Source of the DNA: Candidatus Vogelbacteria bacterium RIFOXYD1_FULL_46_19
GTDB lineage: Bacteria > Patescibacteriota > Minisyncoccia > Phycocordibacterales > XYD1-FULL-46-19
NCBI GenBank assembly: GCA_001824825.1
Contig: MHTK01000002.1
Location: 6,020 to 70,019 of the forward strand
Length of the DNA stretch: 64,000 bases
Reading direction: 5' to 3'
Numbering within the stretch: position 1 is the first letter of the stretch; every line of letters starts with the position of its first letter. The translations under genes and the position numbers were made by a program. The notes under the pieces are model-generated. The model worked only from the letters and a program-made list of their open reading frames with translations. It was not told where the DNA came from and searched no databases. This document shows positions 8,608-60,834 of the stretch, piece after piece.

Positions 8608-11600
8608 ATGAATGAAAATAATATTGAGTCTAATATTCCCAAACTGGATTACAATAATCTCCGGCTAACTCTTCACGACCTAACCCGAAAATTAAAAAAT
8701 TTACCAAAGCCTGACTTGTCGGGCTTTGGACCATCTAGAATTGAAGAAATTAAAAAACAATTAGAGAAACTCGCACCAGAAATTGAGGCCATAATATCTG
8801 ACCCGGCTATCAAATCCGAAAATAAAGAGCTTCTAAAAAATCAACTAAACAGAATCGAGGATAGATTAAATAAAACCTCTGACAATGAAACAAGCCCTTC
8901 AACCACTAAAGGCAGTGCAACAAAGGAAGAAAAGGAAGAGCAACTTGAAGTGGTGAAAAAAGCTTTTTTGAACGCTAAAGATATTATTGACACCCCAGAG
9001 GTAGACCCGGCCGATAAAAAGTCCGCAGTTGAAGCTTTCTATCAAGCTCGACAAGATTACTACCACCAAATGGAAGGAGGAGAAAAAGTGCCCGAAGAAT
9101 TAAAAGATGCCAACTTGCGTATTGCTAAAGTGGAAAAAGACCTGCAAACTCCCACCAATCAGGAATCCATTAAATCACCTGCAAAAACCAAACTAAAGCC
9201 AGATGAAATAACTCTAGAACCGGTCGACAAAACCGCCGGTAGGGCAATTAAATTTTCCGACACCGACCATCGAGAAATACAATCCGCCCTAAAACCAGAA
9301 ACCGAAACAGACAGTGCTCTTGATAGTTACTGGCGACTAGTAGAAGAAACGGCTAACCCCCAAGTACCCCCAACCATTCAAACACCGGAAGAACAAAAAC
9401 GTTCGAGGGGGCAGGTTAAAACCAATCAATTTGTCCAAGACCATCTCGGAATGCTATCACGTGCCGAAAGAGAAAAAATACCCTCAGGATTAAAACCTCA
9501 AGACCCAATTCAAGAACACCCGCCGGTAGTGGAGCCAGCGGCCACACTAGGGGCCGAGGCAACTCCTGTGTTAGTAGACAACGAGGAAAAAAAACCAGAC
9601 GAGCTGACTGCCTTGCTGGAAGAATCAAAGGTGCAAGAACAAGCGGAACTAGACAAAATTACTCAAGCCATCAGTGAAACTACCACTTTAGACGAACTTC
9701 AAACAGCGATCGATAACCTAGGTGGCTTGCAAGGAAGCGACTACTATTCATCGGAAGATCTGAAAAAGCAAATAGACCGTTATTTAATATCGTCAAATAA
9801 ATTCTTTTTAACTGGAGCCGGTGGCTTTCGCGACAAAATAGTGGAACTAGTAAAGCTAGATTCAACTAAAAGCTCAGAGGCCAAACTCCAGGAGCTCCCA
9901 GGATTTAAATTTAGAGACGGAGCAACAAGTACAGCCAGTAGCAATCAAGTAGAGCCAGCAACATCTGAGGTGGGTTCAGAAACAGAAGAAAAAACGGAAA
10001 AGGATGAAAACCTTCAAGACTTATTAGAAGCACTACTAGCTGAAGCTGATGATGAAAAAAATGCGTCTTTAACTCCAAACAACTTCTCCTCGACCAAATT
10101 ACCAACCCTAGAAAACAATGATGATAACACGGAGTTACCAGCTTTAGATCCAGTATTTGTCCAAGAAATGATGGCTAGCCTACCTCCAGAGGAAGTAGGT
10201 TCAGCCACCAACTTTGAAAGCTTGCCGACACCCACTCAAGAAAAAATTAAAGTAGGACTATACAATCTGGGCTGGCAGTTTAAAAAAACTAAAAGCGACT
10301 GGATGGCTCTGGCTCTTGAAAGTATGACCAGCAAGAAAGTTTCCGCTGACGAACTAAAAAATTTAAGCCCAGGCAAGCGTTTAGCCCACGGCTTAGCCGC
10401 CAGCTATCACCGCGATAGCCAGCAAGCCGAATCGCGAATGAGGGAAATAGCCCAGTTAAAAGCTAGGGGTGAAAGTACAAGTTTACTGAGGCATAAGCTA
10501 GGCAATGTAGGCCAACCTTTAAGCACACTTGTAAAAATCGGCCGCACTGTGGCTGACTTAACTGGGGTGGCGATCATTAATCCAACCCGATATGTTTTAG
10601 CCGCCAGTATGATGGCCGGACGAGTAGCGGAAGCTGGTAAAGAAGCTCGTTTTTCCAGTCAGATAACACTAAAGCGAGCTGGTGTAGAAAAGTATCAAAA
10701 CGAGCTTAATTTTGAAGAGCTGGCCTTTGGATCACTAAAAGAAAAATTTCAGCAATTTGAAAATTTTAAAAATCGTAAAAATCATTTACGAAAAATTGCT
10801 CGCGGTATCGCCGCAATGCCTAAAAGAACAACTGGTATGTCGGAAGAAGAAAAGACACAGTTCCAAGAGAATAAATTCACTGGCAATGAAGAACAACTAG
10901 ACTCAGTAAACATCGAAAATGCTTTGACTAAAGTGTCCGATTTTATTGCCGACGGCGTCCAAGGACTTTTACGTTTCGATACCCAACAAAACATTAACGC
11001 CATTGATAAGAAACTCCGTAAGTTAGAAACAAATAGCAAACTGACAGCCGAACAAAAAGAAGCGGTCAAACAAAAAATATTCAAGGCTCATAGCCGGCGA
11101 ATAAAAGATTTAGAAAGAATGACCAGTCGCTATGCCACCATTGATGTTTTGGCTCACACCGCGCGCACTTTAGAATTTGGCGCCAAAGCCACTACAAACA
11201 TTATGATGGTGGAAAGTTTACTGTTGGCGGCTGCCAATATTTACGATCACTTGTTACAGCAAACAGACGAAACAGTAGCCACCACTAATCAAATAGAACA
11301 AATTGAGAAAACCATAAGTGATGATTCACAATCTACCCCAGATGAAACCAATAAATCAACAGAAGATACCGGTCGTTTGTCCTACAACTACCTTTTACCA
11401 AGTGATGAAATGGAAACACAATCTGTCCCTGTTGCTAATGTCGGCTCAACACCAACAGAAAAATTAACAGCAGGTGACCCAGTAGATGTTGAACCTCAAG
11501 CTTCAAGCGAGAGGGTTATCCCACCTGTTTATCAAGAACTAGCCAAGTCAACCTCTCCAGCAGAAAGCGTCACCCCAGATGGAGAAAAACTACCCCTCCT

Positions 11601-12942
11601 CGAACAAACTGGGGCAGAAGTGTCCTATGGTGATAAAATCAGCGTCATTTATGACATCGGTCGCGGGGGCGACTTCGACTCACTCGACCAAGCTCTGCGC
11701 CGAATTGTGGTTCAAGAATACGACTTTAGTAGCGGTGACAAAATTTTAAGCCCAGTGGAAGCGGCTCAACTTGAAAATGTCTTGGCCAATGTCCGGGAGA
11801 TATTAGGCGGACGCACGATCGCCAGCCTCGGGCCTGATGACTTAAAAGGGGTAGCGGAATTTTCAGGTGGCAAACTCACTATTACCGACTACCAAGAATT
11901 TGATCAGAAAATTCTAAGCCCCTTATTTGAGCGAGCTAGCGAAAACATTACCGCCGACTCCCCGGCTGTAAAATTTGCTCAAGCTACTTCCATCGACAAA
12001 TGGCAAGAAATGTTAAGTCAACGGTTTACCTCAGACGACTATAAAGTGGCCACCAACTTCACCGAATCTCCAGCCAGCCCCGCTGTCATCGAGCCTGAAT
12101 CGGAAATGTCCAAAATAAACATCTCCACCAACTCAAGCATCCAACCCACCTCGGCTGAGGAAATTCTAATAAAAACCAAGGTTCCGGAAACACCAGCTGG
12201 TGAGCAAATTACACTTAAGGGCCCCGAAAGCTACAACTCGCCAGCCCCTACCGAAACTCCCCGTATCCCTGATAGTAAACTGATTGATCGAATAGCTGTC
12301 GAAGAAGCCATAGTAAATCTAGGTTACCGCTATAGCCTCCCCACTCCCTTAGCCAGAGCGGTTATGGAATTGGGGCTATCTGATCAGGTAGAGGGCTTAA
12401 CTGAAAGCGGAGTTGCGAAGCCCGGCAGTCAGTTTGATTTTCTGATCAAAATCTGTGGCCCTGATGGCTTTAGTCAAATCTTAAATGACTTAGGGCAAAT
12501 TGATCGTAATCAATTAAATATCTTTAATCAGCTTCACACCGACGGGGCCACTATCGAGCAAATTCGAAGCGCCATCAACTTTACCGATAAGATAAAGTGG
12601 GAGACCGGCCGAGAACTAGCTTTGGCGCGGGCCATCGCCTTCAATAAAACCGAATATTGGCAAGCTGCTTTGGGTAAGGATCTAGTCCCCAATGGGCCAC
12701 AAACAACGAGATTTACCAAAGACGGTGACTTAGTCTTAAAGCAAATTGAAGGACTGAAAGGATCTCTCATTATTGACCCCAACCGACAAAAAATAATGTT
12801 GACCAATCTATTCGACCGGAAGGGTATCAAACTTGAACCGGACCGCTATATTAGTTTTAAAGATAAACCAATTGCTGAGGCTCTAAATAAAGCCCGGGAA
12901 ATAGTGGCTAGCGCTCGCCTACGTGCTACCAAAGCGACCTAA
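8608..12942 (+). CDS. Giant acidic/lysine-rich low-complexity protein (1444 aa), hypothetical
   Basis: Single uninterrupted ORF of 4.3 kb. The product is E/K/Q/S/T-rich with coiled-coil-like segments, no signal peptide and no recognisable catalytic motif. Confidence 0.7.
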   Translation: MNENNIESNIPKLDYNNLRLTLHDLTRKLKNLPKPDLSGFGPSRIEEIKKQLEKLAPEIEAIISDPAIKSENKELLKNQLNRIEDRLNKTSDNETSPSTTKGSATKEEKEEQLEVVKKAFLNAKDIIDTPEVDPADKKSAVEAFYQARQDYYHQMEGGEKVPEELKDANLRIAKVEKDLQTPTNQESIKSPAKTKLKPDEITLEPVDKTAGRAIKFSDTDHREIQSALKPETETDSALDSYWRLVEETANPQVPPTIQTPEEQKRSRGQVKTNQFVQDHLGMLSRAEREKIPSGLKPQDPIQEHPPVVEPAATLGAEATPVLVDNEEKKPDELTALLEESKVQEQAELDKITQAISETTTLDELQTAIDNLGGLQGSDYYSSEDLKKQIDRYLISSNKFFLTGAGGFRDKIVELVKLDSTKSSEAKLQELPGFKFRDGATSTASSNQVEPATSEVGSETEEKTEKDENLQDLLEALLAEADDEKNASLTPNNFSSTKLPTLENNDDNTELPALDPVFVQEMMASLPPEEVGSATNFESLPTPTQEKIKVGLYNLGWQFKKTKSDWMALALESMTSKKVSADELKNLSPGKRLAHGLAASYHRDSQQAESRMREIAQLKARGESTSLLRHKLGNVGQPLSTLVKIGRTVADLTGVAIINPTRYVLAASMMAGRVAEAGKEARFSSQITLKRAGVEKYQNELNFEELAFGSLKEKFQQFENFKNRKNHLRKIARGIAAMPKRTTGMSEEEKTQFQENKFTGNEEQLDSVNIENALTKVSDFIADGVQGLLRFDTQQNINAIDKKLRKLETNSKLTAEQKEAVKQKIFKAHSRRIKDLERMTSRYATIDVLAHTARTLEFGAKATTNIMMVESLLLAAANIYDHLLQQTDETVATTNQIEQIEKTISDDSQSTPDETNKSTEDTGRLSYNYLLPSDEMETQSVPVANVGSTPTEKLTAGDPVDVEPQASSERVIPPVYQELAKSTSPAESVTPDGEKLPLLEQTGAEVSYGDKISVIYDIGRGGDFDSLDQALRRIVVQEYDFSSGDKILSPVEAAQLENVLANVREILGGRTIASLGPDDLKGVAEFSGGKLTITDYQEFDQKILSPLFERASENITADSPAVKFAQATSIDKWQEMLSQRFTSDDYKVATNFTESPASPAVIEPESEMSKINISTNSSIQPTSAEEILIKTKVPETPAGEQITLKGPESYNSPAPTETPRIPDSKLIDRIAVEEAIVNLGYRYSLPTPLARAVMELGLSDQVEGLTESGVAKPGSQFDFLIKICGPDGFSQILNDLGQIDRNQLNIFNQLHTDGATIEQIRSAINFTDKIKWETGRELALARAIAFNKTEYWQAALGKDLVPNGPQTTRFTKDGDLVLKQIEGLKGSLIIDPNRQKIMLTNLFDRKGIKLEPDRYISFKDKPIAEALNKAREIVASARLRATKAT

Positions 12943-24295: not shown

Positions 24296-24385
24296 TTAAA
24301 GAACCTTTTCGATTCCTGACCGGAAACAAATCAGTTTGTTTCTTATCGGGAATCTTTCCCTACGGGAACGGTATAGGTTTTCCAT
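24296..24385 (-). CDS. Candidate 29-aa leader uORF upstream of ABC-F (MENLYRSRRERFPIRNKLICFRSGIEKVL)
   Basis: The ATG is preceded by AGGTGA at -6. It lies in the 240-nt leader between tRNA-His and the ABC-F start and contains a perfect 8-bp hairpin (GAAACAAA-ctga-TTTGTTTC). This is a speculative call. Confidence 0.25.
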   Translation of the reverse strand: MENLYRSRRERFPIRNKLICFRSGIEKVL

Positions 24386-24486
24386 TTTTTCACCTAACGG
24401 CTCAAAAATATGGAAGAACCTTTTCGATTCCCGATGGGCACTGATTTACCCAAAAAGAAAAACCCCTAGATAGAGGTTTTTCTTTT

Positions 24487-24562
24487 TGGGGTGCCCATCG
24501 GGAATCGAACCCGAATTAGAGGTTCCACAAACCTCTGTGTTAACCGTTACACCATGGGCACC
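24487..24562 (-). tRNA. tRNA-His (GTG), with G-1 and encoded CCA
   Basis: Hand-folded cloverleaf: acceptor GTGCCCA/TGGGCAC, anticodon stem GAGGT/ACCTC, loop TTGTGGA, T-loop TTCGATT, extra 5' G and discriminator C. Confidence 0.85.
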
Positions 24563-25552: not shown

Positions 25553-25794
25553 AAAACCTCCTTGGCCACGGAAAGCCGTTTAGAAATCCAACGAATCTTC
25601 TCTTATTATACCATAGTTAATATATAAAGCAAGGAGCTCGGGAGAGGACTTTCCCCCAACGGGGGCTGGTACTTTTCGTTTCATTCGCTTAACAGCTCAT
25701 TCTTATCGAAAAGTCTTTCAAGTCCCCACGCGACTAAAGCAGTTTAGTCGCTTCCCGAGCACAAATAAAAGCACCCGGTAGGTGCTTTTATTTG

Positions 25795-25876
25795 TGCTCG
25801 GGAGAGGACTTGAACCTCCACGCCTTTCGGCACTGGTACCTCATACCAGCGTGTATACCAATTTCACCACCCGAGC
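25795..25876 (-). tRNA. tRNA-Leu (GAG), long variable arm, CCA not encoded
   Basis: Acceptor GCTCGGG/CCCGAGC, anticodon stem CTGGT/ACCAG with loop ATGAGGT, variable arm GCC-GAAA-GGC and T-loop TTCAAGT. Confidence 0.8.
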
Positions 25877-27248: not shown

Positions 27249-27322
27249 GCGCGCTTAGCTCAGTTGGCTAGAGCATCTCGTTTACACCGAGAGGGTCGGG
27301 GGTTCGAGTCCCTCAGCGCGCA
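27249..27322 (+). tRNA. tRNA-Val (TAC), CCA not encoded
   Basis: Acceptor GCGCGCT/AGCGCGC, D-arm GCTC-AGTTGGCTA-GAGC, anticodon stem TCTCG/CGAGA with loop TTTACAC, and T-loop TTCGAGT. Confidence 0.85.
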
Positions 27323-27326
27323 CAAG

Positions 27327-27352
27327 AAAAGGCTGCTTCGGCAGCTTTTTAT
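27327..27352 (+). terminator. Rho-independent terminator after tRNA-Val
   Basis: GGCTGC-ttcg-GCAGC hairpin followed by TTTTTATT. Confidence 0.7.
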
Positions 27353-27475
27353 TGTGCGCACTAGGAAGTGCACTGCTGCACTTCCGTGAGGGACTCGAAA
27401 GGAGTTTCGTTATCAAGCACCTGCCAAAGGTGCCTTGATCGAAACTCACCAGCCCCCGTAGGGGGAGAGTCCCTC
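27353..27475. repeat. tRNA-Val 3'-flanking module: hairpin-interrupted inverted copy of the tRNA 3' end, hairpins, degenerate direct copy of the T-arm
   Basis: GTGCGCAC (27354-61) plus a 26-nt hairpin insert plus GAGGGACTCGAA (27388-99) is the reverse complement of the tRNA-Val 3' 22 nt, split at the acceptor/T-stem junction. GAGTCCCTC recurs at 27466-74. Confidence 0.6.
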
Positions 27476-27655
27476 GATTCCCAAAATCAAAAGCCCAAAG
27501 CTTTCGCTTCAGGACTTTTGATTTTACAGCAACGCTGAGAGACTCGAACCAAGTTTCCACGAAGCCTGATTTTTTACTCGAGTTATTTTGCTTGTCGCCT
27601 TCGCGATCCTTCTGGTGGACTGCATCACGCCGTAGGTTCGCAGTAGCGAACCTAC

Positions 27656-27825
27656 GGCGGAGGGGGCTAGATTCTAAACTTACAGTTTCAGTCCCCTTGT
27701 TGGATAAATTTTTCGTCCTTCGGACTTAAATTTATGCTCAACAAAGCTTCGAATCCCTCCTTCCGCTTTGCGAAACCGTCCTTCAGACGGCTTCCGCAAA
27801 AAAGCTTTCGGGTCTCGCTTTTTTG
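27656..27825. repeat. tRNA-Ser 3'-flanking module: degenerate direct copy of the tRNA 3' end plus trailer hairpin
   Basis: GGCGGAGGGGGCTAGATTCTAAACT (27656-80) matches TGCGGAGGGGGCGAGATTCGAACTCG of the gene (27824-49). There is a hairpin CGCAAAAAAGC...GCTTTTTTGCG at 27796-27830 and a perfect 12-bp hairpin at 27612-27643. Confidence 0.6.
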
Positions 27826-27912
27826 CGGAGGGGGCGAGATTCGAACTCGCGATGCCCTTGCGGACATGCTGGTTTTCAAGACCAGTGCTTTAAACCACTC
27901 AGCCACCCCTCC
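27826..27912 (-). tRNA. tRNA-Ser (TGA), long variable arm, CCA not encoded
   Basis: Acceptor GGAGGGG/CCCCTCC, anticodon stem CTGGT/ACCAG with loop CTTGAAA, an 18-nt variable arm and T-arm GCGAG-TTCGAAT-CTCGC. Confidence 0.8.
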
Positions 27913-29436: not shown

Positions 29437-29508
29437 GCCCTTGTAGTTCAATGGATAGAACAGCGGACTTCTAAGCCGTTAATGGGGGTTCGATTCCCTC
29501 CAGGGGCA
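29437..29508 (+). tRNA. tRNA-Arg (TCT) probable; one A·G mismatch at the loop-closing pair of the anticodon stem
   Basis: Acceptor GCCCTTG/CAGGGGC, D-arm GTTC-AATGGATA-GAAC, anticodon loop CTTCTAA and T-loop TTCGATT. CCA is not encoded. Confidence 0.65.
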
Positions 29509-29509
29509 C

Positions 29510-29553
29510 AAAATAAAATTTCACAGGATTATATTCCTGTGAAATTTTATTTT
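29510..29553 (+). terminator. Perfect 19-bp hairpin terminator after tRNA-Arg(TCT)
   Basis: AAAATAAAATTTCACAGGA-ttatat-TCCTGTGAAATTTTATTTT. Confidence 0.6.
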
Positions 29554-30100
29554 GTGCCCCTGAGCAAGCAAACTGCTTGGCTTGCGTGAGGGAATCGAAA
29601 GACTTTTCGTTACCAAGCACCTGATAAAGGTGACTTGGTCGAAAAGTACCTGCCCGCCATCGCTATGCTCAGGCATTGGCAGGCGGGCCAGCGAGTGTAG
29701 CTCGAGATTCCCTCTAGAACTTGGCGTCCGGGAATCGAAGAAGCTGAGCTTGTCGCAACGAGGCTGTAGGCCGAAGTGAGACGCGAAGCCTGTACTGTTC
29801 CTGCTGTGCCCGCTAGAGCTTTAGCGTAAGCGGGTAATGAAAGATTCCCGATGTGTGTAAAGGAACCGAAAGACTTTTCGCTGCCGAAACTTATCGCAGT
29901 GAGCGTAGCGAAACGAGATGTGAAGCCTGTACCGTTTAGGTTTTACTCTCCTTGGCTCGGAAATGAGAAATATTACTTTCTCATTTCACTCGCTCTACAT
30001 CAGCAATAAAAACGAAAGCCGCTTAGGGGTTAACCAAAGCGGCTGAATCACATTTGATGATATATAAACCAAGGTCGGACCTTGGGAAAGAAATTGGGGG
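29554..30100. repeat. Expanded tRNA-Arg(TCT) 3'-flanking repeat field (split inverted 3'-end copy, multiple T-arm fragments, repeated ~100-nt units, many hairpins), non-coding
   Basis: GTGCCCCTG (29554-62) plus a 25-nt hairpin plus GAGGGAATCGAA (29588-99) is the exact reverse complement of the tRNA 3' 21 nt, split at the acceptor/T junction. ATTCCCTC, GGGAATCGAA and GATTCCCGA fragments follow. There are two GAAGCCTGTAC(T/C)GTT-containing repeat units at 29780-29940. 710 bp contain no ORF longer than 65 aa. Confidence 0.55.
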
Positions 30101-30220: not shown

Positions 30221-31396
30221 CTAACCTCGAACTTGCATTCTTTGGAATTCTCGCTTGAAGCCGTCATCAGGGTCGTCCACCTTGGATGAAGGTAGCTGAA
30301 TTACGGCCAGTTTGCCATTTCCGTCGGCTTTTTCTTCAATCCTCCTCTGCTCGCGCCGACGACGATTCCTTTCAAACTGTTGAGGTGATGCCGATTGCCA
30401 CACTCCTCGATCATCTTGGTAAACGACTTCTCCGTTCATTAGGGGATATTGATTACCCTCAGAGTCAGTATATACATGATCCTGCACCACAGTTTCCAAC
30501 TCTGCCAATTTTGCCATTTGTTCCTCCACCTCGACTTTCTTTGCTTCTAGTTCTTGGTGGAGGCGCAACTTTTCAGTTGCTATACGAGATGTTTCTTCTC
30601 TCCCTTCTCGCAGTTTTGAGTTAACATCCCGTAAGCGCTGGTGGGCAAGTTCTGTCACATGAACTCGGCTGAGTTTGGGTCGACCTGAGGACTGGTGATT
30701 CTCTGCTCCAAAGGAAGATTGCGCCGGTTCACGGCGCCACCAGGCCACCACTAGTAACGAAAGTACCAACAACAGCCAAACTAGGCCAGTGGTAAGATTT
30801 TGTTCAAACCAGCTTACCAGGCCGATCTTTTTTTGAACCGAAGCCGATTGTAGTTGCAACAGACTCAAGGCCTGCTCCAGTTTTCCATTAACTACTACCA
30901 TCTCCTCCTGGAGCTGTTGTATGTCGGCCATCCCTTTCGCGACAGCCGGAGTGAGTTTTTGAACCACACTAGCCGAGACTTGTTCAACCGACTCGTTACC
31001 AAGCGTAGTGCTCGTGGCATTTTGGAGACTCTCGATCATTTTCACAATCCGATCGAGTTTCTCAGGAATAACAGGGATGGGAGAAATCTCAACCTCGGCG
31101 GTAGGCACCGTGGCAACTACAAAGTCAGCTGGTACTGGCCGCTCGTACGTTCCTGCCAACATTTTGTAGAATGCCTTTTCGGCGTTCTTCATGTGATGCA
31201 GTTTAGCAAAAGCAACCTGGTACTCTTCGGGGTCTGGCCAAACCTCGCGAACAAGGTCATTGGCCTGATAATCTTGGATTACCCAGGGGCCTTGGCCCTG
31301 GACCATTTCAAACTCTCCGAGGCCAAGATCAGCCTCGGCGGTTACTGCTGTCGCCATGACCAGCAGCACCATTAGCATCCATGCGACGCGCTTCAT
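30221..31396 (-). CDS. Secreted/membrane-spanning coiled-coil protein, hypothetical (anomalously GC-rich)
   Basis: Signal peptide MKRVAWMLMVLLVMATAVTAEA (start chosen there), one central TM helix and a C-terminal charged coiled-coil. GC is about 50% against about 40% background. Confidence 0.5.
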   Translation of the reverse strand: MKRVAWMLMVLLVMATAVTAEADLGLGEFEMVQGQGPWVIQDYQANDLVREVWPDPEEYQVAFAKLHHMKNAEKAFYKMLAGTYERPVPADFVVATVPTAEVEISPIPVIPEKLDRIVKMIESLQNATSTTLGNESVEQVSASVVQKLTPAVAKGMADIQQLQEEMVVVNGKLEQALSLLQLQSASVQKKIGLVSWFEQNLTTGLVWLLLVLSLLVVAWWRREPAQSSFGAENHQSSGRPKLSRVHVTELAHQRLRDVNSKLREGREETSRIATEKLRLHQELEAKKVEVEEQMAKLAELETVVQDHVYTDSEGNQYPLMNGEVVYQDDRGVWQSASPQQFERNRRRREQRRIEEKADGNGKLAVIQLPSSKVDDPDDGFKREFQRMQVRG

Positions 31397-31575
31397 AGTA
31401 AGACACCTCCTTTCTATATCTTCCACCCAAAATCGATAATGTCTAAAACTACAGGTTTTAGACATAAGCTTCACATCATCTATGTGTAAAAGAACTCCGC
31501 TGTTACCAACGATTTCTACTTTAGAAACTTACATAAAATTAGAAATATGTCAATACCACACCAGACTACCCGTTA

Positions 31576-33826: not shown

Positions 33827-33898
33827 GCTCTCATAGTTCAATGGATAGAACGCTAGCTTGCGGAGCTGGTAATCCAGGTTCGAATCCTGGTGAGAGCA
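33827..33898 (+). tRNA. tRNA with anticodon GCG as read (Arg, atypical G34)
   Basis: Acceptor GCTCTCA/TGAGAGC, D-arm GTTC-AATGGATA-GAAC, anticodon stem CTAGC/GCTGG with loop TTGCGGA, and T-arm CCAGG-TTCGAAT-CCTGG. Confidence 0.55.
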
Positions 33899-34072
33899 CA
33901 CGAATGAAATGGGTGGATCTGACCAGGATTCGAACTCGAAAGGGGTCGGGAAAACTGTAGTTTTCCCGTGGAGGAAGGCAGAGCGAAGCTCGTCGGAAAA
34001 CCGTCCGCGTGTCGCTGAAGCTTTAGCGGAGGCACAGGGTTTCCGAAAGGTGAGATTCCTGATGAGAGCACC
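33899..34072. repeat. tRNA-Arg(GCG) 3'-flanking module
   Basis: Inverted T-arm copy CCAGGATTCGAA (33923-34) is followed by CTCGAAAGG and then the hairpin GGGAAAACTGTAGTTTTCCC. A degenerate direct copy GAGATTCCTGATGAGAGCACC lies at 34052-72. Confidence 0.55.
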
Positions 34073-34197
34073 ACTCTATTCGTACAGTACCTAGACTAAA
34101 ATTTGGCGACGGCCAAATTTTGAGTCGAAAGAAAATCCTGGCAAGCCCCCCCTACCAGTAGCTAATTACCAACCTAGTAGGTAGCAAACAAAAAACC

Positions 34198-35239: not shown

Positions 35240-36271
35240 ATGGGTCGCTTAACTATTTCAAATATTACAAATAACGAGCCGTGGCCAAATAAAGCTGAGG
35301 CCGAGGCACACTTTACCCAATCTGAGCTTTTTGGTCAGTGGCAAATTGAGCGCGGTTTTAAAGTACGCCGCTTGGTCTTAAAAGACAACGACCGGCCCAT
35401 ATTATGGTGGCAAGCCCTTACTGCTCCCCTAATAAGACGTCACACTCAAATCTATATTCCACACGGACCGATTGTTTTAGACCCCTCCGATTTGAACCCA
35501 ACTGTAATAAAGTTATTTAAAGAGGAACTCTTTAAACTGGCCCGAGAAGATAAAGCGGTCTTTGTCCGTCTTGATCCCCAAATCAAAGACTGGACCAAGA
35601 GTGCCCTAAACAAAAATGGCTTTAAGACCGCTCCGGCCTTTGCTGCCCACTCAACTCTAACCCAGCCTCGCTACGAGTGGATTATGGATTTAATCGGCAG
35701 TGAAACTGATTGGTTTAACCGTATGTCTAAAGACACACGCTACTCTATTCGTACCGCCCAGAAACGCGGCACGGTAACGGAAATCATTAACGAAAACTTA
35801 ACCAGTGAACTCAATAACTTTTACCAACTTGTCCTTGAGACCAGCAAGCGAAACAACTTCCGCCTTCACCCTAAGTCTTATTATGAAAAAGTTTTGAGTG
35901 AAACCAGCCGGAATCAGAGCGGCTTTATCGTGAAAGCCTCTTTCAACGGCATTCCCCTAGTCATGAACTTGATCACCACCGGTAGTCCCACCGCCCTTCA
36001 CGTTTTTGGTGGCTCGACGACCGTCCATCGTGACCAGCTAGCTTCCTACTTAGCTCACTGGGCCGGCTTTATTGAAGCCAAGCGCCAAGGAGCCACGACT
36101 TATAGTTTCGGCGGGATTAGTTTCGGTGAAGATCAAAATCCTTCCTGGGTGGACTTAACCGCTTTTAAACAAAAGTTCCCCGGCCACATCAAAGATTATG
36201 GCCCCTTGTATGATCTCCCTATTTCCAGGCTATGGTATTATGCCTATGTCACCGCAAAAAAATTCCGCTAA
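35240..36271 (+). CDS. FemAB-family peptidoglycan peptide-bridge aminoacyltransferase-like protein
   Basis: 343 aa with a FemABX-like two-GNAT-lobe architecture. The call rests on overall sequence resemblance only. Confidence 0.55.
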   Translation: MGRLTISNITNNEPWPNKAEAEAHFTQSELFGQWQIERGFKVRRLVLKDNDRPILWWQALTAPLIRRHTQIYIPHGPIVLDPSDLNPTVIKLFKEELFKLAREDKAVFVRLDPQIKDWTKSALNKNGFKTAPAFAAHSTLTQPRYEWIMDLIGSETDWFNRMSKDTRYSIRTAQKRGTVTEIINENLTSELNNFYQLVLETSKRNNFRLHPKSYYEKVLSETSRNQSGFIVKASFNGIPLVMNLITTGSPTALHVFGGSTTVHRDQLASYLAHWAGFIEAKRQGATTYSFGGISFGEDQNPSWVDLTAFKQKFPGHIKDYGPLYDLPISRLWYYAYVTAKKFR

Positions 36272-40884: not shown

Positions 40885-41106
40885 TGCCCCGTGCAAGATT
40901 CTGTCCCTACCTGCCCGCCAGCGCCTAAGCCAGCAGGGCGACTCGCCTGCCATGCAAGGTACGAACGGGTACCCCGCCCTGTGCACAGGGCGGGGTCTTT
41001 CGAATCCTGACGCAAGCCAAGTCCTAAAGCCGTCCGGACTCGGAGTAGGCCAGTTGACTTGCTCACGGGGCACAAAATAAAAACGCCTAGCGGCGTCTTC
41101 ATTTTG
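40885..41106. repeat. tRNA-Lys 3'-flanking module
   Basis: Direct copy TGCCCCGTGCAAGATTC (40885-901) matches 16 of 17 positions of the gene's TGCCCCGTGCAGGATTC (41107-23). There is an inverted T-arm fragment TTTCGAATCCTG (40999-41010), a hairpin CCGCCCTGTG-ca-CAGGGCGG, and a 15-bp perfect inverted repeat CACGGGGCACAAAAT (41064-78) / ATTTTGTGCCCCGTG (41101-15) that includes the tRNA acceptor end. Confidence 0.6.
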
Positions 41107-41179
41107 TGCCCCGTGCAGGATTCGAACCTGCGACCGTTCGCTTAAAAGGCGACTGCTCTACCAACTGAGCTAACGGGGC
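41107..41179 (-). tRNA. tRNA-Lys (TTT), CCA not encoded
   Basis: Acceptor GCCCCGT/ACGGGGC, D-arm GCTC-AGTTGGTA-GAGC, anticodon loop CTTTTAA and T-arm GCAGG-TTCGAAT-CCTGC. It closely resembles canonical bacterial tRNA-Lys. Confidence 0.8.
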
Positions 41180-41226: not shown

Positions 41227-41943
41227 CTACACCCCCAACACCCACCGCTCCAGCGCCACGTCCAAATCACGACTGCGACGCCTAGTCTCATGATATAAAA
41301 CCAACAACTCGCCCATTATCGACAGCAACTCCGCTTCGGTATAATTACGGCCAAACCGGCGCAACTTGGAAGCCACAAACGGCGCCACCGGCAATTTTTG
41401 ATTATCCGGCTCCCCGGCGGCTAGACTCAAGTTGACCACCATCCCCCACAACTGCCAAAACACCTCTTCGGCCACATAGCCCCGCAATTTGGCTTCGGCT
41501 AGAGTCAGCCATAACTTTTGACGATTTCTTTCACCGAAAGCATCGCCAATGGAATAAATAAAATTGTCTCGCTTGGCTTTAGACGTTACCGCCGAAAATT
41601 CTTTCAACTGAGCCCCGGCCTCCGTCAACCTTTTCTTAAGTAGGGCTAAAATTTTGGTCTCCACCACCACAAAAATATGTTCAGCCTGTACTAAACCGGG
41701 AAGCTCCGCCTCTAGCCACTCCAGCCCATTCGGCTGAGCTAAAATATCCCTTAACTCCACTATATGTTTAGCCTCAAACAAACCTTGAGCCGACACCAGC
41801 TCACTGGCCACCCGACTGTCAAAATTATCTTCATTAAATATAAAGTGTTCAGCCTCGGGCCGCTTGTGGTGCACCGCCGTTAAAAATTTAGCCGTATAAG
41901 CTAAACATTTGGCTCGGTCTGATCCGTAAAATACGTAAAGCAT
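41227..41943 (-). CDS. DNA polymerase III delta-subunit-like protein (HolA-like), tentative
   Basis: 238 aa with an MLYVFYGSD N-terminus and a clamp-loader-like helical C-terminus. The assignment is weak. Confidence 0.38.
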   Translation of the reverse strand: MLYVFYGSDRAKCLAYTAKFLTAVHHKRPEAEHFIFNEDNFDSRVASELVSAQGLFEAKHIVELRDILAQPNGLEWLEAELPGLVQAEHIFVVVETKILALLKKRLTEAGAQLKEFSAVTSKAKRDNFIYSIGDAFGERNRQKLWLTLAEAKLRGYVAEEVFWQLWGMVVNLSLAAGEPDNQKLPVAPFVASKLRRFGRNYTEAELLSIMGELLVLYHETRRRSRDLDVALERWVLGV

Positions 41944-56733: not shown

Positions 56734-57840
56734 TTAACGATTAACCGGCATAATTATATAAGAAAAACTTTTATTTTCTGTGCCTTGAATTAAAAGTGGA
56801 CGATTAGGTTCCGTCATTCCAATTAATAAATTTAAGGCCGGAATAGATTGAAATGACTCTAAAATATAACGAGCATTATAGTGAGCGGAAAAATCATTAC
56901 CCTCTATTTTAGCTTTAATTGTAGCCGTACTTTCACCAATATCCGAACTGGCTGAATAAATTATAATCTGTTCTTTAGCGGCATCTACATCTAGTTTAAT
57001 TTGATTAAATTTACCGGAAAAAATATTGGCCATTTTTAAAACTTGTCCCAAATCATCTTTACTTAAAGTGATAGTGGAAGTAGAAGTTTTGGGCATTATT
57101 TGCCGATAATCCGGATAAATACCATCAATCAATCTTGAGGTTAAATGAATTCCAACACTAGTAATAGATAATTGGTTACTGTCCGAACATAATTCTAATT
57201 CACCCTCTTCCCCTTCAAATACTTTTATAATCTCAGCGGCATTTTTTAAAGGAATAATCAGTCGGAAATCAACATCCTTATTTTGATTTGAAATTGTTAA
57301 CTTTTTTTCTGCCAATCTAAAGGAATCAGTAGCCACAAAAATTAATTCATTATTATTCTGGTAGATATAAACACTGGAAATTTCAGGTTTAATATCAGAT
57401 ACCGCCGCAGCATAAATAACAGATTTAAGTCCATAAACTAAATCGGTATTTTTTAACTTAAGTTTATTAGTGGTTGATATTTTAGGAATCAGTGGAAAAT
57501 CTTCATATTCTTCACTCTTTATAACCGTGTTATAAGTACTCGTTTTAATTAGTAAATTATTATTCTGTAACTCAACAGTTATTTTATCTTCATCTTTTAA
57601 ATTAGTTAGAAAATTACTTAGAGTAGTGGGATTACAAGAAGTCATTCCTTCTTCTAAAACCTTAGCCGGCAACTCCACTTCTAGACCAATTTCTAAGTTA
57701 GTCGACTTAATTACTAAGTTATTCTTTTTAACCTCTAAAATAAGGTTCTTTAAAACCGGTAAAGATAAATTATGAGAAGTAGCTCTTTCGGCGATTAGGA
57801 CAGCTTTCTGAAGTTTTTGTTTAGAGCATTCTATTTTCAT
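56734..57840 (-). CDS. dnaN: DNA polymerase III beta sliding clamp
   Basis: 368 aa with a three-domain clamp architecture, immediately downstream of dnaA. Confidence 0.9.
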   Translation of the reverse strand: MKIECSKQKLQKAVLIAERATSHNLSLPVLKNLILEVKKNNLVIKSTNLEIGLEVELPAKVLEEGMTSCNPTTLSNFLTNLKDEDKITVELQNNNLLIKTSTYNTVIKSEEYEDFPLIPKISTTNKLKLKNTDLVYGLKSVIYAAAVSDIKPEISSVYIYQNNNELIFVATDSFRLAEKKLTISNQNKDVDFRLIIPLKNAAEIIKVFEGEEGELELCSDSNQLSITSVGIHLTSRLIDGIYPDYRQIMPKTSTSTITLSKDDLGQVLKMANIFSGKFNQIKLDVDAAKEQIIIYSASSDIGESTATIKAKIEGNDFSAHYNARYILESFQSIPALNLLIGMTEPNRPLLIQGTENKSFSYIIMPVNR

Positions 57841-58060
57841 ATTTTAAAAAAGTAGAGCTATTAAGGTTGTGGATAGGTGGATAAGTTACTTTAAGGTTGA
57901 TAATTAAGGAAAATTTTATAACTTAAATTGTTTAATTTGGGGATAAAGCATTGGATGAGTTGGGATTAACTTTTTCATTTTTTATTATTAGACATTAATC
58001 CCAACTTTAATCTTCTTTTACTTCTGACTTATACCCAAGTTAATCCACATAATTTATTGT
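57841..58060. promoter_or_regulatory. Candidate oriC in the dnaA-dnaN intergenic region
   Basis: AT-rich 220 bp with clustered DnaA-box-like 9-mers (TGTGGATAG, GGTGGATAA, TGGGGATAA, TAATCCACA) and a T/A-rich putative unwinding stretch (TTTTTCATTTTTTATTATTAGACATTAAT). Confidence 0.5.
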
Positions 58061-59422
58061 TTAATTATTACTATATAGTTGTGATCTAATTTGTTCTATT
58101 TCTTGACCAAGTAAAGAGTCGGTTTTAGAGTCTTTTTTAATCTTCTCGTAGGCGTGAATAACTGTAGTATGATCTCGACCACCTAATTTTTGACCAATAT
58201 AAGGGTAGGAGGTGTTAAAGTCTTCTCGCAAAATATACATAATTATTTGACGCGGTTTTACTACCTCCTTTCGCCTAGTTTTCTCATAGAGAGTTTTTTC
58301 ATCCACACTGTAAAAATTAGCAATAGTTTTTATCACATCCTTATAAGAGATAGACTTTTTGGGCTTTATATTGCTTTTTAAGAGATGTTTAACCTCAGCT
58401 AAGCTTATTTCCTTCTTCTTAGCTTGAGCTTGGACAATAATTGATTTTAAAGTGCCTTCCAACTCTCTAATACTATCTTGAACCACTGAGGCTATATACT
58501 CTAAAACCTCGTCCGAGACTGGGGTGTTCAGGAAATTAGCCTTATTTTTTAAAATTGCTAAGCGGGACTCGTAGTCCGGTTTACTTATATCCACTATCAT
58601 TCCCCCTTCAAACCGAGACCGTAGTCGATCTTCTAAATGTTCTATATATTTAGGTGGTTGATCGGAGGAAAAAATAATTTGCTTGTTATTCTCATAAAAA
58701 TGATTAAAGAGATGAAACAATTCTTCCTGAGTTTTCTCTTTATTAGAGAAGAACTGAATATCATCCATAATAATCAGATCATATTTGCGATATTTTTCCT
58801 TAAACAGGTTTACTTTGTTGTTTAAAATAGAATTAACACAATCAATAGTGAAATTTTCCGAAGTGGTGTAAAAAACCCTCTTATTAGTGTTTAAACGGCT
58901 AATTTGGTTGCCAACTGCTTGTAAAAGATGGGTTTTTCCCACTCCAGTAACCCCGTAAATATATAGCGGGTTGTAATTCATCCCTGGGTTTTTAATTACC
59001 GCCTGGGAAGCGGCGTAAGCCACCTCGTTAAAAGAGCCCACCACGAAAGATTCAAAGGTGTATTTAGGGTTTAAATTACTATCCTGATTGATGTAGAGCT
59101 CATTTAGCCCTAAATCCGAAGAACTATGACTAGGAGCCTGGGTGGGAGCGGGATCGAGGGGTGGTTTGTCATCCCTTTTTACTATTATATATTCTAAACT
59201 TCTAACATTAGGCTCTATTTCCCTTAGGGCTTTTAAAATAAACTTGTGATATTTAGCTTTTAACCAGTCTTTAACGAAGGTGTTGGGAGTACTTAAAAAA
59301 ACCATCCCGTCGTCTAATTTATAAATGTAAGTGTTTTTAAACCAAGTGCCGAAGTTAGCTTTGGAAATATTTAACTCAATCTGAGCTAAGGCATTTTCCC
59401 AAAGTTGTTTATTTTCGACCAT
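58061..59422 (-). CDS. dnaA: Chromosomal replication initiator protein DnaA
   Basis: AAA+ Walker A GVTGVGKTHLL, Walker B LIIMDDIQF, sensor motifs and a C-terminal DNA-binding domain (GGRDHTTVIHAYEKI). Confidence 0.95.
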   Translation of the reverse strand: MVENKQLWENALAQIELNISKANFGTWFKNTYIYKLDDGMVFLSTPNTFVKDWLKAKYHKFILKALREIEPNVRSLEYIIVKRDDKPPLDPAPTQAPSHSSSDLGLNELYINQDSNLNPKYTFESFVVGSFNEVAYAASQAVIKNPGMNYNPLYIYGVTGVGKTHLLQAVGNQISRLNTNKRVFYTTSENFTIDCVNSILNNKVNLFKEKYRKYDLIIMDDIQFFSNKEKTQEELFHLFNHFYENNKQIIFSSDQPPKYIEHLEDRLRSRFEGGMIVDISKPDYESRLAILKNKANFLNTPVSDEVLEYIASVVQDSIRELEGTLKSIIVQAQAKKKEISLAEVKHLLKSNIKPKKSISYKDVIKTIANFYSVDEKTLYEKTRRKEVVKPRQIIMYILREDFNTSYPYIGQKLGGRDHTTVIHAYEKIKKDSKTDSLLGQEIEQIRSQLYSNN

Positions 59423-60105: not shown

Positions 60106-60834
60106 ATGATTGGTTTTTTTAATATAATTTTGTTTCAACCTTTGTACAATGCTTTGGTCTGGTTGAGTGGGGTGATGCCGGGCCACAGTATTGCCCTCGC
60201 GATTATTGCTTTAACGGTCATTATTAAAACTTTACTTACTCCTTTGTATCATAAGTCTTCTAAGACCCAACGCAAACTTAAAGAAATAGAACCGGAGCTC
60301 TCGAAGCTTAAAGAACAACATAAAGACGACAAACAACTGCAAGCTCAAAAAATGATGGAACTGTACCGTGAACATGGTATTAATCCCCTGACCGGCTTTA
60401 TGGTCCTTCTAATTCAACTGCCGATTATTTTAGCTTTGTTTTATGTTTTTTCTAAGGGTTTTGAGCTTAATTTGGATATTTTATACCCCTTTGTGTCGAG
60501 TCCAGAGGTGGTAGATCGAACAGTTTTTGGTTGGATTCTCTTAACGGAAAAAAGTTACTGGTTGGCTTTACTTGTTGGCTTGACTCAGTATGTGCAAATT
60601 CGCCTAACTTTGCCCCCCTTACCCCAGCGATTGCCTAAGTCCGATACCCCCTCTTTTAAAGAAGATTTAGCGCGCAGTATGAATATGCAAATGCGCTACG
60701 TGATGCCGGTTATTATTACGGTGATTGCCTCCCAGTTCCCTTCAGCGATCGCTTTATACTGGCTCACTGGTAACCTTTTTGCTATTGGTCACGAGTTAAT
60801 TGTGAGGAGTAAGGCGAAGAAACTAGTAGTTTAA
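60106..60834 (+). CDS. yidC: Membrane protein insertase YidC (short form)
   Basis: 242 aa, about 5 TM segments, with conserved MELYREHGINPLTG and LPIIL motifs of YidC/Oxa1. Confidence 0.8.
   Translation: MIGFFNIILFQPLYNALVWLSGVMPGHSIALAIIALTVIIKTLLTPLYHKSSKTQRKLKEIEPELSKLKEQHKDDKQLQAQKMMELYREHGINPLTGFMVLLIQLPIILALFYVFSKGFELNLDILYPFVSSPEVVDRTVFGWILLTEKSYWLALLVGLTQYVQIRLTLPPLPQRLPKSDTPSFKEDLARSMNMQMRYVMPVIITVIASQFPSAIALYWLTGNLFAIGHELIVRSKAKKLVV

Follow-up and report, generated by a model that had tools for sequence, protein, structure and literature searches.

Structured elements without open reading frames lie 3' of tRNA genes in Vogelbacteria and match the adjacent tRNA copy by copy

Direct repeats that run from the T-loop of a tRNA gene to its 3' end are a classical signature of integration into tRNA genes. 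K. Williams is said to have described, in NAR in 2002, how islands and prophages in tRNA genes arise through tyrosine integrases that cross over in the T-loop, and to have classified them by sublocation. Integration of CTX-phi reportedly takes place via a folded single-strand attP, as Val and colleagues are said to have shown in Mol Cell in 2005, and integron attC sites are grouped with it here. MITEs and DNA transposons are recognized by constant terminal inverted repeats and a short target duplication of fixed length. A different kind of neighbour of the tRNA gene is found in plants, where dicistronic tRNA-snoRNA genes are processed by RNase Z (refs 66-67 in PMC12045711).

In the whole 64-kb stretch of DNA analysed here (the window), which comes from Candidatus Vogelbacteria RIFOXYD1_FULL_46_19, an initial annotation had reported inverted repeats at tRNA-His, tRNA-Leu and tRNA-Lys, and all three were found where it had placed them. 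At tRNA-His, 19 bp are perfectly repeated (TTCGATTCCCGATGGGCAC, 24423-24441, and GTGCCCATCGGGAATCGAA, 24491-24509) and enclose a 16-bp hairpin (CCCAAAAAGAAAAACC / GGTTTTTCTTTTTGGG) that takes in C73 and the encoded CCA; at tRNA-Leu the repeat is a perfect hairpin of 22 bp with a 5-nt loop (Table 1), and at tRNA-Lys it is a perfect repeat of 15 bp (41064-41078 and 41101-41115). By an analytic estimate for perfect inverted repeats within 100 nt over 64 kb, about 6e-3 would be expected at 15 bp, 2e-5 at 19 bp and 4e-7 at 22 bp, and chance cannot explain the three repeats. ARAGORN placed the three genes on the minus strand, so the arm at the higher coordinates lies in the gene and its copy in the 3' trailer. 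The repeats are the 3' end of the tRNA pairing with an antisense copy, A', across the trailer hairpin, and they form the edge of a larger element. The complementarity of the trailer to the T-arm and the acceptor 3' strand proved to be as systematic as had been proposed: all seven tRNAs of the window (His, Leu, Val, Ser, Arg-tct, Arg-gcg and Lys) carry it, each on its own strand, and it was kept in relatives, where it follows the local tRNA sequence.

The element is a structured, unannotated stretch of about 110-230 nt, without open reading frames, directly 3' of the tRNA gene. Read along the tRNA strand, it consists of the trailer, A', a conserved three-way junction and a second tRNA-derived arm, A''. 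The trailer is the tRNA's own and holds a hairpin or terminator in the hairpin layout and a spacer of about 20 nt in the short-linker layout. A' runs antisense to the tRNA, first to nt 66-75 and then to nt 54-65, and is usually split exactly at 65/66 by a conserved hairpin, Pa, with a CUGC loop, while A'' is a sense copy of nt 56/57-74; between them lies the core (GAAAG / P3 / ACC / P4 with a GUA triloop / AGA). A direct partial copy of the tRNA 3' end is found 130-220 nt downstream of each tRNA of the window, beyond an intervening stretch of conserved, structured sequence. Helix P2, which closes the junction, is predicted to form from the T-arm parts of A' and A'', and in hairpin-layout copies the A' acceptor part would pair with the acceptor 3' strand of the real tRNA, lengthening the trailer hairpin. 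The closing helix, P1 plus P2, measures 16-17 bp. The trailer had been taken for a device in its own right; its complementarity is real, but the repeat is not self-contained, since the other arm of this larger conserved element, A'', can also pair with the antisense arm. Near dnaA, four copies lie on the minus and three on the plus strand, and an orientation set by the direction of replication was rejected, as that of each copy is that of its tRNA.

Table 1. tRNA genes, elements and associated features of the window (R1, covariance model of the element)
Feature	Position	Strand	Evidence	Composition
tRNA-His(GTG), encoded CCA	24487-24561	-	ARAGORN; Rfam tRNA 63.1 bits	
His trailer hairpin	24450-24490	-	sequence	16 bp, A/U-rich, including C73 and CCA
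His element	24342-24441	-	R1 match 24345-24452, 45 bits, E 4e-9; fold z -4.6	A' contiguous, without Pa (24423-24441); core GAAAAG / P3 / UAUACC / P4 (GUUCCC-GUA-GGGAA); A'' GATTCCCGAT (24345-24354)
Second, partial element after His element	24296-24344	-	R1 E 0.006	GTCAGGAATCGAAAAGG...; direct repeat AAGAACCTTTTCGATTCC
tRNA-Leu(GAG)	25794-25876	-	ARAGORN; Rfam	
Leu 22-bp hairpin	25754-25802	-	sequence	inner part terminator-like; acceptor 3' strand, A-tract and GCACC stem against GGUGC, U-tract and acceptor part of A'
Leu element	25636-25762	-	R1 103 bits; fold -56.3 kcal/mol, z -6.1	A' acceptor part (25753-25762), Pa, A' T-arm part, type-1 core, A'' AAGTCCTCTCCCGAGC (25636-25651)
tRNA-Val(TAC)	27249-27323	+	ARAGORN; Rfam	
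Val element	27354-27476	+	R1 123 bits; fold z -7.2	preceded by terminator GCTGC-TTCG-GCAGC-U5 (27324-27353); A' acceptor part GTGCGCAC, Pa, A' T-arm part TGAGGGACTCGAA, type-1 core, A'' GAGTCCCTC
Second antisense copy of Val-like tRNA 3' end, past a further hairpin	27533-27550	+		CGCTGAGAGACTCGAACC; tandem-element remnant
tRNA-Ser(TGA)	27825-27912	-	ARAGORN; Rfam	
Ser element	27657-27795	-	R1 15.4 bits, E 0.08 (weak); fold z -4.8	divergent core; A' GGAAGGAGGGATTCGAAG, A'' GAATCTAGCCCCCTCCGC
tRNA-Arg(TCT)	29437-29509	+	ARAGORN; Rfam	
Arg-tct element	29554-29715	+	R1 77-87 bits; copy absent from seed alignment	preceded by hairpin and U-tract (29510-29553); A' acceptor part GTGCCCCTG, Pa, A' T-arm part GAGGGAATCGAA, type-1 core with enlarged P4, A'' GATTCCCTC
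Extra degenerate tandem elements	29728-29940	+	sequence comparison	one copy His-type (A'' AAAGATTCCCGATG, 29840-29853), core resembling His element of Vogelbacteria 44_32; third partial tandem copy behind Arg-tct begins at 29864 (AACCGAAAGACTTTTCG)
tRNA-Arg(GCG)	33827-33899	+	ARAGORN; Rfam	
Arg-gcg element	33922-34071	+	arms; R1 only 9.6 bits	short-linker layout, divergent core; A' ACCAGGATTCGAAC, A'' GATTCCTGATGAGAGCAC; further remnant 34122-34141
tRNA-Lys(TTT)	41106-41179	-	ARAGORN; Rfam	
Lys element	40885-41073	-	R1 26.8 bits, E 1e-4	terminator GACGCC-GCTA-GGCGU-U5AU4 between tRNA and A'; A' acceptor part GTGCCCCGTG (41064-41073), enlarged Pa, A' T-arm part CAGGATTCGAAAG (40997-41009), core, A'' GAATCTTGCACGGGGCA (40885-40901)

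The covariance model R1 was built on a seed of 11 sequences, in whose consensus structure 20 of the 35 pairs covary. It matched 37 copies (31 distinct) on contigs of Vogelbacteria and other Patescibacteria, and within these matches 94.7% of the base-pair cells were paired as compared with 72.6% after shuffling; compensatory double changes were present in 31 of the 35 pairs, which none of 500 shuffles reached, and slid controls remained at 55% or below. G-U was found 22 times and A-C 12 times. Every convincing match in the window was co-oriented with a tRNA, and none was found away from tRNAs within the 64 kb. Across copies and genomes the sequence of the core (GAAAG, ACUUUUCG/CGAAAAGU, ACC, GCCCCC-GUA-GGGGG) is very strongly conserved, whereas the Pa stems have drifted and compensated; in their combination, cores and Pa hairpins form a mosaic that does not cluster by tRNA identity, and unrelated-looking 'type-2' cores occur between arms of the same kind. 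Elements were present at tRNAs of about 15 specificities, nearly every tRNA, and in one case (L026) within a tRNA operon in the order Pro, 8 nt, element, 9 nt, Ala, Ala. The elements make long perfect palindromes where assemblies break. The distribution that we claim is restricted to Parcubacteria-like Patescibacteria; a spread to Saccharibacteria, suggested by three MAGs, was withdrawn, as L043 is syntenic with the window and the assignment is doubtful.

A search of Rfam 15 returned no family for the element, with tRNA alone reaching threshold and the sub-threshold matches belonging to long-hairpin miRNA models. Hammerhead, HDV, twister, pistol and hatchet ribozymes gave no Rfam match, and in our reading a hammerhead core is incompatible with GAAAG / ACC / AGA as junction strands. 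T-box riboswitches, defined by the stem I specifier, the T-box sequence and a position ahead of an aaRS or amino-acid gene, were rejected as well, as were other riboswitches: no Rfam T-box match was obtained with E values allowed up to 10, and the Val and Ser elements face one another with no gene between or downstream of them. Nor, for the latter reason, is the element an attenuator of downstream genes. A phage or plasmid origin was rejected, with no match in a pattern scan of viral contigs or in blastn searches against phage and plasmid collections. TIGR-Tas, as described in PMC12045711, is unrelated, and the element, which our literature searches did not turn up, appears to be undescribed; we found no curated RNA family or mobile-element class with such a design.

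The arms always match the adjacent tRNA, as shown by a per-copy arm table; we used this table in place of a tail-versus-trailer matrix of block-sum complementarity, which discriminated poorly because all tRNAs share the T-loop. In Vogelbacteria 44_32, tRNA-His has the acceptor GGTCGCC and the antisense arm reads GGGCGACC, while the downstream sense copy keeps GGGCACC; A' tracks two acceptor-pair changes of the tRNA and A'' retains the older sequence. The Lys T-loop, TTCGAAT in the window, reads TTCGACT at the orthologous loci of L042 and L043, and the T-arm part of A' as well as all three A'' copies follow the local tRNA. The Leu copy of L014 has an A' that agrees with its tRNA (GACTCC) and not with A'' (GAGTCC). 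Hairpin-layout copies keep the A' acceptor part perfect against the tRNA (mean 8.1/9), with that of A'' down to 5.6/9, whereas short-linker copies have a poor A' acceptor part (6.5/9), and in one such copy (L015) the P2 strands are CAGGAATC and GATTCCTG where the tRNA has GATTCCGG. Direct repeats of 18-20 nt begin at T-loop position 56/57 in short-linker copies and stop exactly at N73-C(A); in the copies of the window the direct repeats of the tRNA 3' segment measure 9-17 nt.

The element shares several features with islands in tRNA genes: the insert is flanked by a direct repeat equal to the tRNA 3' end from the T-loop (16-20 bp in the islands), the copy that is displaced decays, several tRNA 3' fragments remain from tandem arrays and orthologous sites can be empty. 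Both the direct repeats at the two ends and the presence or absence at orthologous sites were found here, but an integrase gene was not; the insert, of 110-230 bp, holds neither an integrase nor any other ORF, it has an extra antisense tRNA copy and a covarying hairpin structure, and it uses nearly every tRNA (about 15 specificities) where the islands use one or two. The comparison with CTX-phi and attC rests on the integrated order, in which target, spacer, inverted copy, cargo and target correspond to tRNA 3' end, trailer, A', core and A''. This order was found in all copies, with tRNA:A' perfect in the hairpin layout, and in both systems a hairpin stem reproduces the chromosomal target duplex and structure rather than sequence is conserved. 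However, the target here is a tRNA gene instead of dif or attI, no candidate enzyme is present in the window, and the element is 100 times smaller than the phage and has arms that differ between copies. The retroviral or LTR primer-binding site, likewise about 18-21 nt complementary to a specific tRNA 3' end and starting in the T-loop, was rejected: the complement fits the gene or precursor (genomic N73-C-A-A...) and not the mature CCA end, it is split by Pa, no LTRs are present and no reverse transcriptase lies nearby. A MITE or DNA transposon was also rejected, as the inverted arms change from copy to copy, each set equalling its neighbouring tRNA.

Orthologous loci gave both outcomes, inverted copies in some relatives and empty sites in others. 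The sites at Val and Arg-tct in L014, Arg-gcg in L003 and Lys in L044, all filled in the window, are empty, which speaks against an obligatory processing checkpoint, while the Lys loci of L042 and L043 carry the element. Strain-level polymorphism for presence or absence was not seen at the Lys locus, where seven strain-level contigs are identical to the window. Synteny at tRNA-His does not extend to the close ABC-F relatives (L001, L032-L034), which leaves no orthologous comparison for that locus. Tandem, nested or orphan copies occur in the window (behind Arg-tct and Val; Table 1), in L018 (240-660, with a 42-nt duplication), in L012, where the tRNA-Leu 3' end is present three times, in L028, with an orphan element 2.7 kb away from its own tRNA-Ser, and in L042, which was also counted among these cases. 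Pfam scans of 40 of the larger ORFs of the window returned housekeeping genes or no family, with no recombinase, integrase, transposase or reverse transcriptase; next to the copies, the neighbours are housekeeping genes, with no integrase, transposase or reverse transcriptase near any of them, and no excised form of the element was seen.

The explanation that we tentatively prefer is that of an ORF-less duplicative element, tied to tRNA 3' ends, co-transcribed with the tRNA and folding as RNA; each inverted repeat may well mark where a tRNA gene meets one of this family of ORF-less structured elements. It would involve three steps, with direct sequence evidence falling under the first only. 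First, a non-autonomous duplicative element, bounded by the repeat of 18-20 nt from the T-loop to the 3' end, appears to be gained, lost, tandemly duplicated and rearranged at tRNA 3' ends. Second, it would be transcribed with the tRNA by read-through or within a tRNA operon and fold as RNA, with element-level selection presumably acting on the core, e.g. as a protein-binding or catalytic module. Third, the arms may be kept identical or complementary by copying from the adjacent tRNA, whether by gene conversion, by template switching between close repeats or by templating at insertion. The recombination scar considered in the initial annotation covers a part of this evidence only, namely the 18-20-nt direct repeats of the tRNA 3' end, the tandem copies and the empty orthologous sites. 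Selection for pairing between tRNA and A', the idea behind that annotation, could produce a perfect A' next to a decaying A'' acceptor part, but the pattern of the arms is not accounted for by such selection alone. The lack of both an excised form and an integrase, transposase or reverse transcriptase near the copies argues against a mobile element, and the conserved core and compensated Pa look more like purifying selection on a working RNA than recent transposition. To our knowledge, no mechanism re-specifies three target-derived segments (the acceptor and T-arm parts of A', and A'') for a new tRNA.

Another explanation, to which we give only a minor chance, is a cis-acting device of the pre-tRNA, predicted to serve as a processing or quality-control switch for 3'-extended precursors. 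The antisense arm would capture the 3' third of the tRNA in a read-through precursor, forming a duplex of at least 20 bp for which the downstream A'' would compete, and would thereby provide, e.g., an RNase III/RNase P entry site or sequester the acceptor end until the trailer is removed. The hairpin-layout copies agree with this, with an acceptor part of A' that is perfectly complementary to the tRNA even where A'' has decayed, as do the His copy of 44_32 and the Leu copy of L014, in which A' goes with the tRNA and A'' does not. The competition with cloverleaf formation that had been anticipated is borne out by the predicted folds of all seven read-through precursors, where the fold-back has the lower energy, ahead of 'cloverleaf plus closed element' by a margin of 6 kcal/mol at Ser and of 14-17 kcal/mol at the other six. 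Read-through would be expected at the Lys locus of L042, where the acceptor strand itself forms the hairpin and the U run lies inside the stem, with no U-tract after it. However, orthologous tRNAs of relatives do without the element, which is thus not required for maturation, and canonical-looking terminators lie inside the repeat at Leu, Val, Arg-tct and Lys, so that, in our reading, most tRNA transcripts would end before the antisense arm. In addition, the acceptor part of A' is poor in short-linker copies, P2 can co-vary away from the tRNA (L015), and the perfect Watson-Crick pairing of tRNA and A', with almost no G-U, would also be expected from homogenization of a palindrome at the DNA level at the hairpin.

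A stand-alone small RNA gene family, with one putative cognate 'guide' or tRNA mimic per tRNA, is similarly improbable. RNase Z and RNase P would cut the RNA out of the tRNA transcript, as in the plant dicistronic genes, with the core as protein-binding or catalytic scaffold and arms that mimic the cognate acceptor/T helix or guide the complex to the segment from the T-loop to the 3' end. Like those genes, the element is a small structured RNA directly 3' of the tRNA, putatively co-transcribed and releasable by tRNA-processing enzymes; the L026 operon, with its 8-nt and 9-nt spacers, fits this layout and has the element in the position of a tRNA. It differs from them in being bacterial, in lacking box C/D or H/ACA motifs and in having arms that match the upstream tRNA. 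A strongly conserved core sequence combined with variable arms matched to the target, Pa stems that drift with compensation, and a short-linker A'' that ends exactly at N73-C-A, like a tRNA gene, are all consistent with a small RNA. Against it, A' and A'' are mutually complementary, which would occlude a guide, and the closing helix exceeds the 12-bp acceptor/T stack; the A'' acceptor part has decayed in most hairpin-layout copies, so mimicry is not maintained. The patchy presence among orthologous tRNAs and the type-2 cores between arms of the same kind also count against it, and no associated protein was found.

We considered in addition a programmable, tRNA-templated system, in which the core would be a ribozyme or RNP scaffold and the arms guides copied from the neighbouring tRNA, or, equivalently, a miniature mobile element that would enter any tRNA gene via a target-mimicking hairpin; taken jointly, these two forms seem unlikely. 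Each tRNA gene would then have its own cognate guide RNA, acting on the tRNA or its gene in the stretch between T-loop and 3' end, with cleavage, ligation, repair, modification and RNA- or ssDNA-guided integration as candidate actions.

Plain intrinsic terminators, whose stems would reach the acceptor strand by accident or by template-switch growth of a palindrome, are a very remote prospect and effectively refuted: by eye, a GC hairpin with a U-tract is present in four of the seven cases (Leu, Val, Arg-tct and Lys, each behind an A-tract in the manner of bidirectional terminators) and weak at His and Ser, the His hairpin not being a good canonical terminator because its U run lies inside the stem, and the empty Val site of L014 carries such a terminator, but a region scan for the consensus gave 9 sites where 8.5 were expected without calling any of these hairpins on the strand of the tRNA, the tRNA-derived outer stem runs past the U-tract and resumes after Pa over nt 54-65, to be followed by the conserved 70-nt core and the sense copy, the same architecture exists without any terminator in short-linker copies, and the 37 covariance-model copies covary strongly.

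Taken together, our results, if true, would mean that one lineage of Patescibacteria with ultra-small genomes spends roughly at least 1% of its DNA, as extrapolated from about 1.7 kb in the 64-kb window, on a conserved RNA structure that is attached to most tRNA genes and whose sequence is matched, copy by copy, to the adjacent tRNA. Leftover tRNA 3' fragments of such elements could be mistaken for prophage att sites. One outcome would be a selfish element of a new kind, which exploits the conserved segment from the T-loop to the 3' end and encodes no enzyme, raising the questions of what mobilizes it and how its arms are rewritten; the other would be a tRNA-directed RNA of a new class, with the role of guide, mimic or processing module.

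The window has seven tRNA genes; comparing the 420 nt lying 3' of each, on the tRNA's own strand, we found a single plan common to all seven. After the tRNA came a trailer that was short or formed a hairpin, then sequence antisense to the tRNA 3' segment (A'), then GAAAG, P3 (a long hairpin), ACC, P4 (a short GC hairpin closed by a GUA/GUU triloop) and AGA, and lastly a downstream sense copy (A''). A' is antisense to the acceptor 3' strand, the T-stem 3' strand and the T-loop, and in five of the seven copies a hairpin (Pa) splits it precisely where the complements of nt 66 and nt 65 would meet; A'' is a direct tRNA copy starting at T-loop position 56/57. Pairing of A' with A'' over their T-arm portions gives a helix (P2) that closes a three-way junction; where the acceptor portion of A'' survives, it pairs with that of A' (P1). 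Single-sequence folds reproduced this structure with z-scores of -4.6 to -7.2. CCA is encoded by tRNA-His only; the other six genes stop at N73-C-A, and tRNAs and A'' copies of related contigs show the C-A ending too. A seemingly unrelated 'type-2' core (GAAC GCCGGAGCG ... GAGGCGGTGCC ...), without a match in Rfam, is flanked by tRNA-matched arms of the same kind at sites in three compared contigs and perhaps in the window.

Features of the window and of compared contigs from relatives and metagenomes (L numbers), with covariance-model scores of the elements; tRNA genes, whose positions are given in their rows, were called by ARAGORN and Rfam
Feature	Sequence	Positions	Strand	Bits	E
tRNA-His, element	window	24487-24561	-	45	4.4e-9
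Partial copy after His	window			20.1	0.006
tRNA-Leu-GAG, element	window	25794-25876	-	103	2.3e-23
tRNA-Val, element	window	27249-27323	+	123	2.4e-28
tRNA-Ser-TGA, element	window	27825-27912	-	15.4	0.08
tRNA-Arg-TCT, element (outside seed)	window	29437-29509	+	77	5.8e-17
tRNA-Arg-GCG	window	33827-33899	+
tRNA-Lys-TTT, element	window	41106-41179	-	26.8	1.3e-4
Extra copies incl. His-type	window	29728-29940
Further extra copy	window	27533-27550
Extra copies, 42-nt duplication	L018	240-660
Type-2 core	L042	1950-2130
Type-2 core	L009	100-230
Type-2 core	L003	19620-19700
Type-2 core (perhaps)	window	33936-34053
ACGRAGNGGAGUG	L003	19415-19467
ACGRAGNGGAGUG	L012	1355-1374
FemAB-family gene	window	35240-36271
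dnaN adjoining dnaA	window	56734-59422
IS110-family transposase	L033	2428-3357
1444-aa ORF, no Pfam family	window	8608-12942
ORFs of 238-417 aa, no Pfam family	window	30221-31474, 41227-41943, 60823-62040, 62969-63961

The initial annotation had described perfect inverted repeats at tRNA-His (19 and 16 bp), tRNA-Leu (22 bp) and tRNA-Lys (15 bp), and all were recovered at exactly the same coordinates; by analytic estimate, about 6e-3 to 4e-7 such repeats no more than 100 nt apart are expected by chance in 64 kb. Since these three genes lie on the minus strand, the lower-coordinate arms are 3' trailers, and we identify the repeats with high confidence as pairing between the tRNA and A'.

A covariance model was built from a MAFFT alignment of 11 seed sequences (35 consensus pairs, 20 covarying). 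Scanned with filters off, the window gave the matches listed in the table, all on the strand of their tRNA, and no convincing match in the rest of its 64 kb. The model recovered 37 copies across 23 sources, in whose alignment 94.7% of base-pair cells were paired, as compared with 72.6% after shuffling, and 31 of 35 pairs changed on both sides; these values were reached by none of 500 shuffles, and slid controls gave at most 55%. This alignment was fitted to the model, which somewhat inflates the pairing, although the margin remains large and the seed came from MAFFT. G-U outnumbered A-C combinations (22 vs 12), mildly supporting an RNA on the tRNA strand. No family in Rfam 15 matched, even at E up to 10, nor did any entry in the phage and plasmid collections. 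We are highly confident that the structured elements form a genuine and conserved family, and equally that it lacks Rfam annotation.

When several sequence collections were searched with the core pattern, matches were found in the sister genome Vogelbacteria 44_32, other Patescibacteria MAGs, three MAGs titled Saccharibacteria and twelve further metagenome contigs, while viral contigs gave none. The window's SpoU/TrmH protein shows 100% identity to a protein of Candidatus Vogelbacteria bacterium RIFOXYD1_FULL_46_19, and the window's ABC-F homologues are Parcubacteria-like as well. The contigs titled 'uncultured Candidatus Saccharibacteria' are L009 and L043 (assembly CAZIIR...), L008 and L015. 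L043 is syntenic with the window (ExoIII, 238-aa ORF, tRNA-Lys, SpoU, Fpg, Mur ligase) with 73% SpoU identity, which makes that label doubtful, so we claim a distribution in Vogelbacteria and other Patescibacteria only.

Wherever a tRNA lies upstream of a copy, A' read as its reverse complement corresponds to tRNA nt 54-65 and 66-75, and A'' to nt 56/57-74. With hairpin or terminator linkers of 30 nt or more (n=18), acceptor matches to the tRNA averaged 8.1/9 for A' and 5.6/9 for A''; with linkers under 30 nt (n=6) they were 6.5/9 and 8.5/9, and the direct repeat of 18-20 nt ended exactly at N73-C(A). The purine-rich motif ACGRAGNGGAGUG, common to short linkers (including those of L015, L017 and L018) and ordinary inter-tRNA spacers, may be a processing signal. 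In Vogelbacteria 44_32 the tRNA-His acceptor is GGTCGCC and its A' is GGGCGACC, while A'' retains GGGCACC, the sequence of the window tRNA-His. The Lys T-loop reads TTCGAAT in the window and TTCGACT in the orthologues L042 and L043, and in each the local tRNA is tracked by the T-arm portion of A' and by every A'' (three in L042). We are highly confident that the arms match the adjacent tRNA. Selection on A':A'' pairing alone would not hold them equal to the tRNA, from which we infer that some copying or homogenising process acts on them.

Our leading reading, held tentatively, is a duplicative element that lacks ORFs, associates with tRNA 3' ends and is transcribed with the tRNA. It is favoured because presence at orthologous sites is patchy: tRNA-Val of L014 is followed by a terminator only, its tRNA-Arg-tct by a short tRNA-like fragment and no element, tRNA-Lys of L044 has none, and the empty tRNA-Arg-gcg site of L003 leaves 55 bp to the S20 stop codon, as compared with 340 bp in the window. 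It is also favoured because the direct repeats span the T-loop to the 3' end, a footprint classically left when elements integrate into tRNA genes, because displaced copies decay, and because copies are often tandem, nested or orphan and modules are mosaic. Among such copies, the window's extra His-type element lies 5 kb from tRNA-His with a core resembling that of the 44_32 His element, L012 carries the tRNA-Leu 3' end three times with a similar trailer after each, an orphan in L028 lies 2.7 kb from its tRNA-Ser, and in L042 one of the two or three elements has a type-2 core. Mosaicism follows from core similarity being independent of tRNA identity and from identical Pa hairpins behind different tRNAs across genomes (e.g. 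window Leu and L024 Arg-tcg). In L026 the element sits inside a tRNA operon with spacers of 8 and 9 nt, a position in which it would necessarily be transcribed.

An attP folded into a hairpin, as in CTX-phi, offers a possible lead, as integration through it would yield the same order of tRNA 3' end, spacer, A', core and A''. Genes near the elements are housekeeping, with no recombinase or RT among them. Four points weigh against the leading reading: no enzyme was identified, no excised form was seen, no mechanism accounts for the rewriting of three arm segments, and the core is conserved in a way that resembles selection on a functional RNA. The tRNA-rich region also contains a gene of the FemAB family, whose enzymes form tRNA-dependent peptidoglycan branches, with no established link to the elements. 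The adjacency of dnaN and dnaA places the window next to the chromosomal replication origin; element orientation tracks the tRNA, not replication direction. In the relative L033 (ABC-F identity 90%) an IS110-family transposase (DEDD_Tnp_IS110 + Transposase_20) lies between PNP_UDP_1 and ABC-F, where the window has tRNA-His and its element. Independent metagenome assemblies of one strain (L038-L041) are interrupted within or close to the long palindrome at tRNA-Lys, with L038 beginning in its hairpin loop; the elements probably pose a hazard to assembly.

The initial annotation had proposed that the trailers compete with cloverleaf formation. In minimum-free-energy predictions of full read-through transcripts the tRNA 3' third pairs with A', and this fold-back is favoured over the cloverleaf plus closed element, by 14-17 kcal/mol in six of the tRNAs and by 6 kcal/mol in Ser; in several, the tRNA 5' acceptor strand is predicted to pair with A''. 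The proposal is therefore thermodynamically sound, although it is limited to transcripts passing the hairpin, and four of the seven trailer hairpins look to us like ordinary terminators. A cis-acting switch for read-through pre-tRNAs, for which the acceptor part of A' being held perfect against the tRNA speaks, seems unlikely, and a stand-alone guide or mimic RNA family is doubtful to the same degree. Plain terminators are a very improbable account of the family.

Single features are shared with tRNA-integrating islands, folded-attP elements, dicistronic tRNA-ncRNA genes, terminators and retroviral primer-binding sites, but the element fails a defining feature of each of those that lent themselves to testing. 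No description of it was found in the open-access literature, and we know of no system in which most tRNA genes of a genome are each followed by a conserved RNA structure with stems that copy, in antisense and in sense, the 3' end of that same tRNA. On that open-access basis, we rate the family as categorically new.
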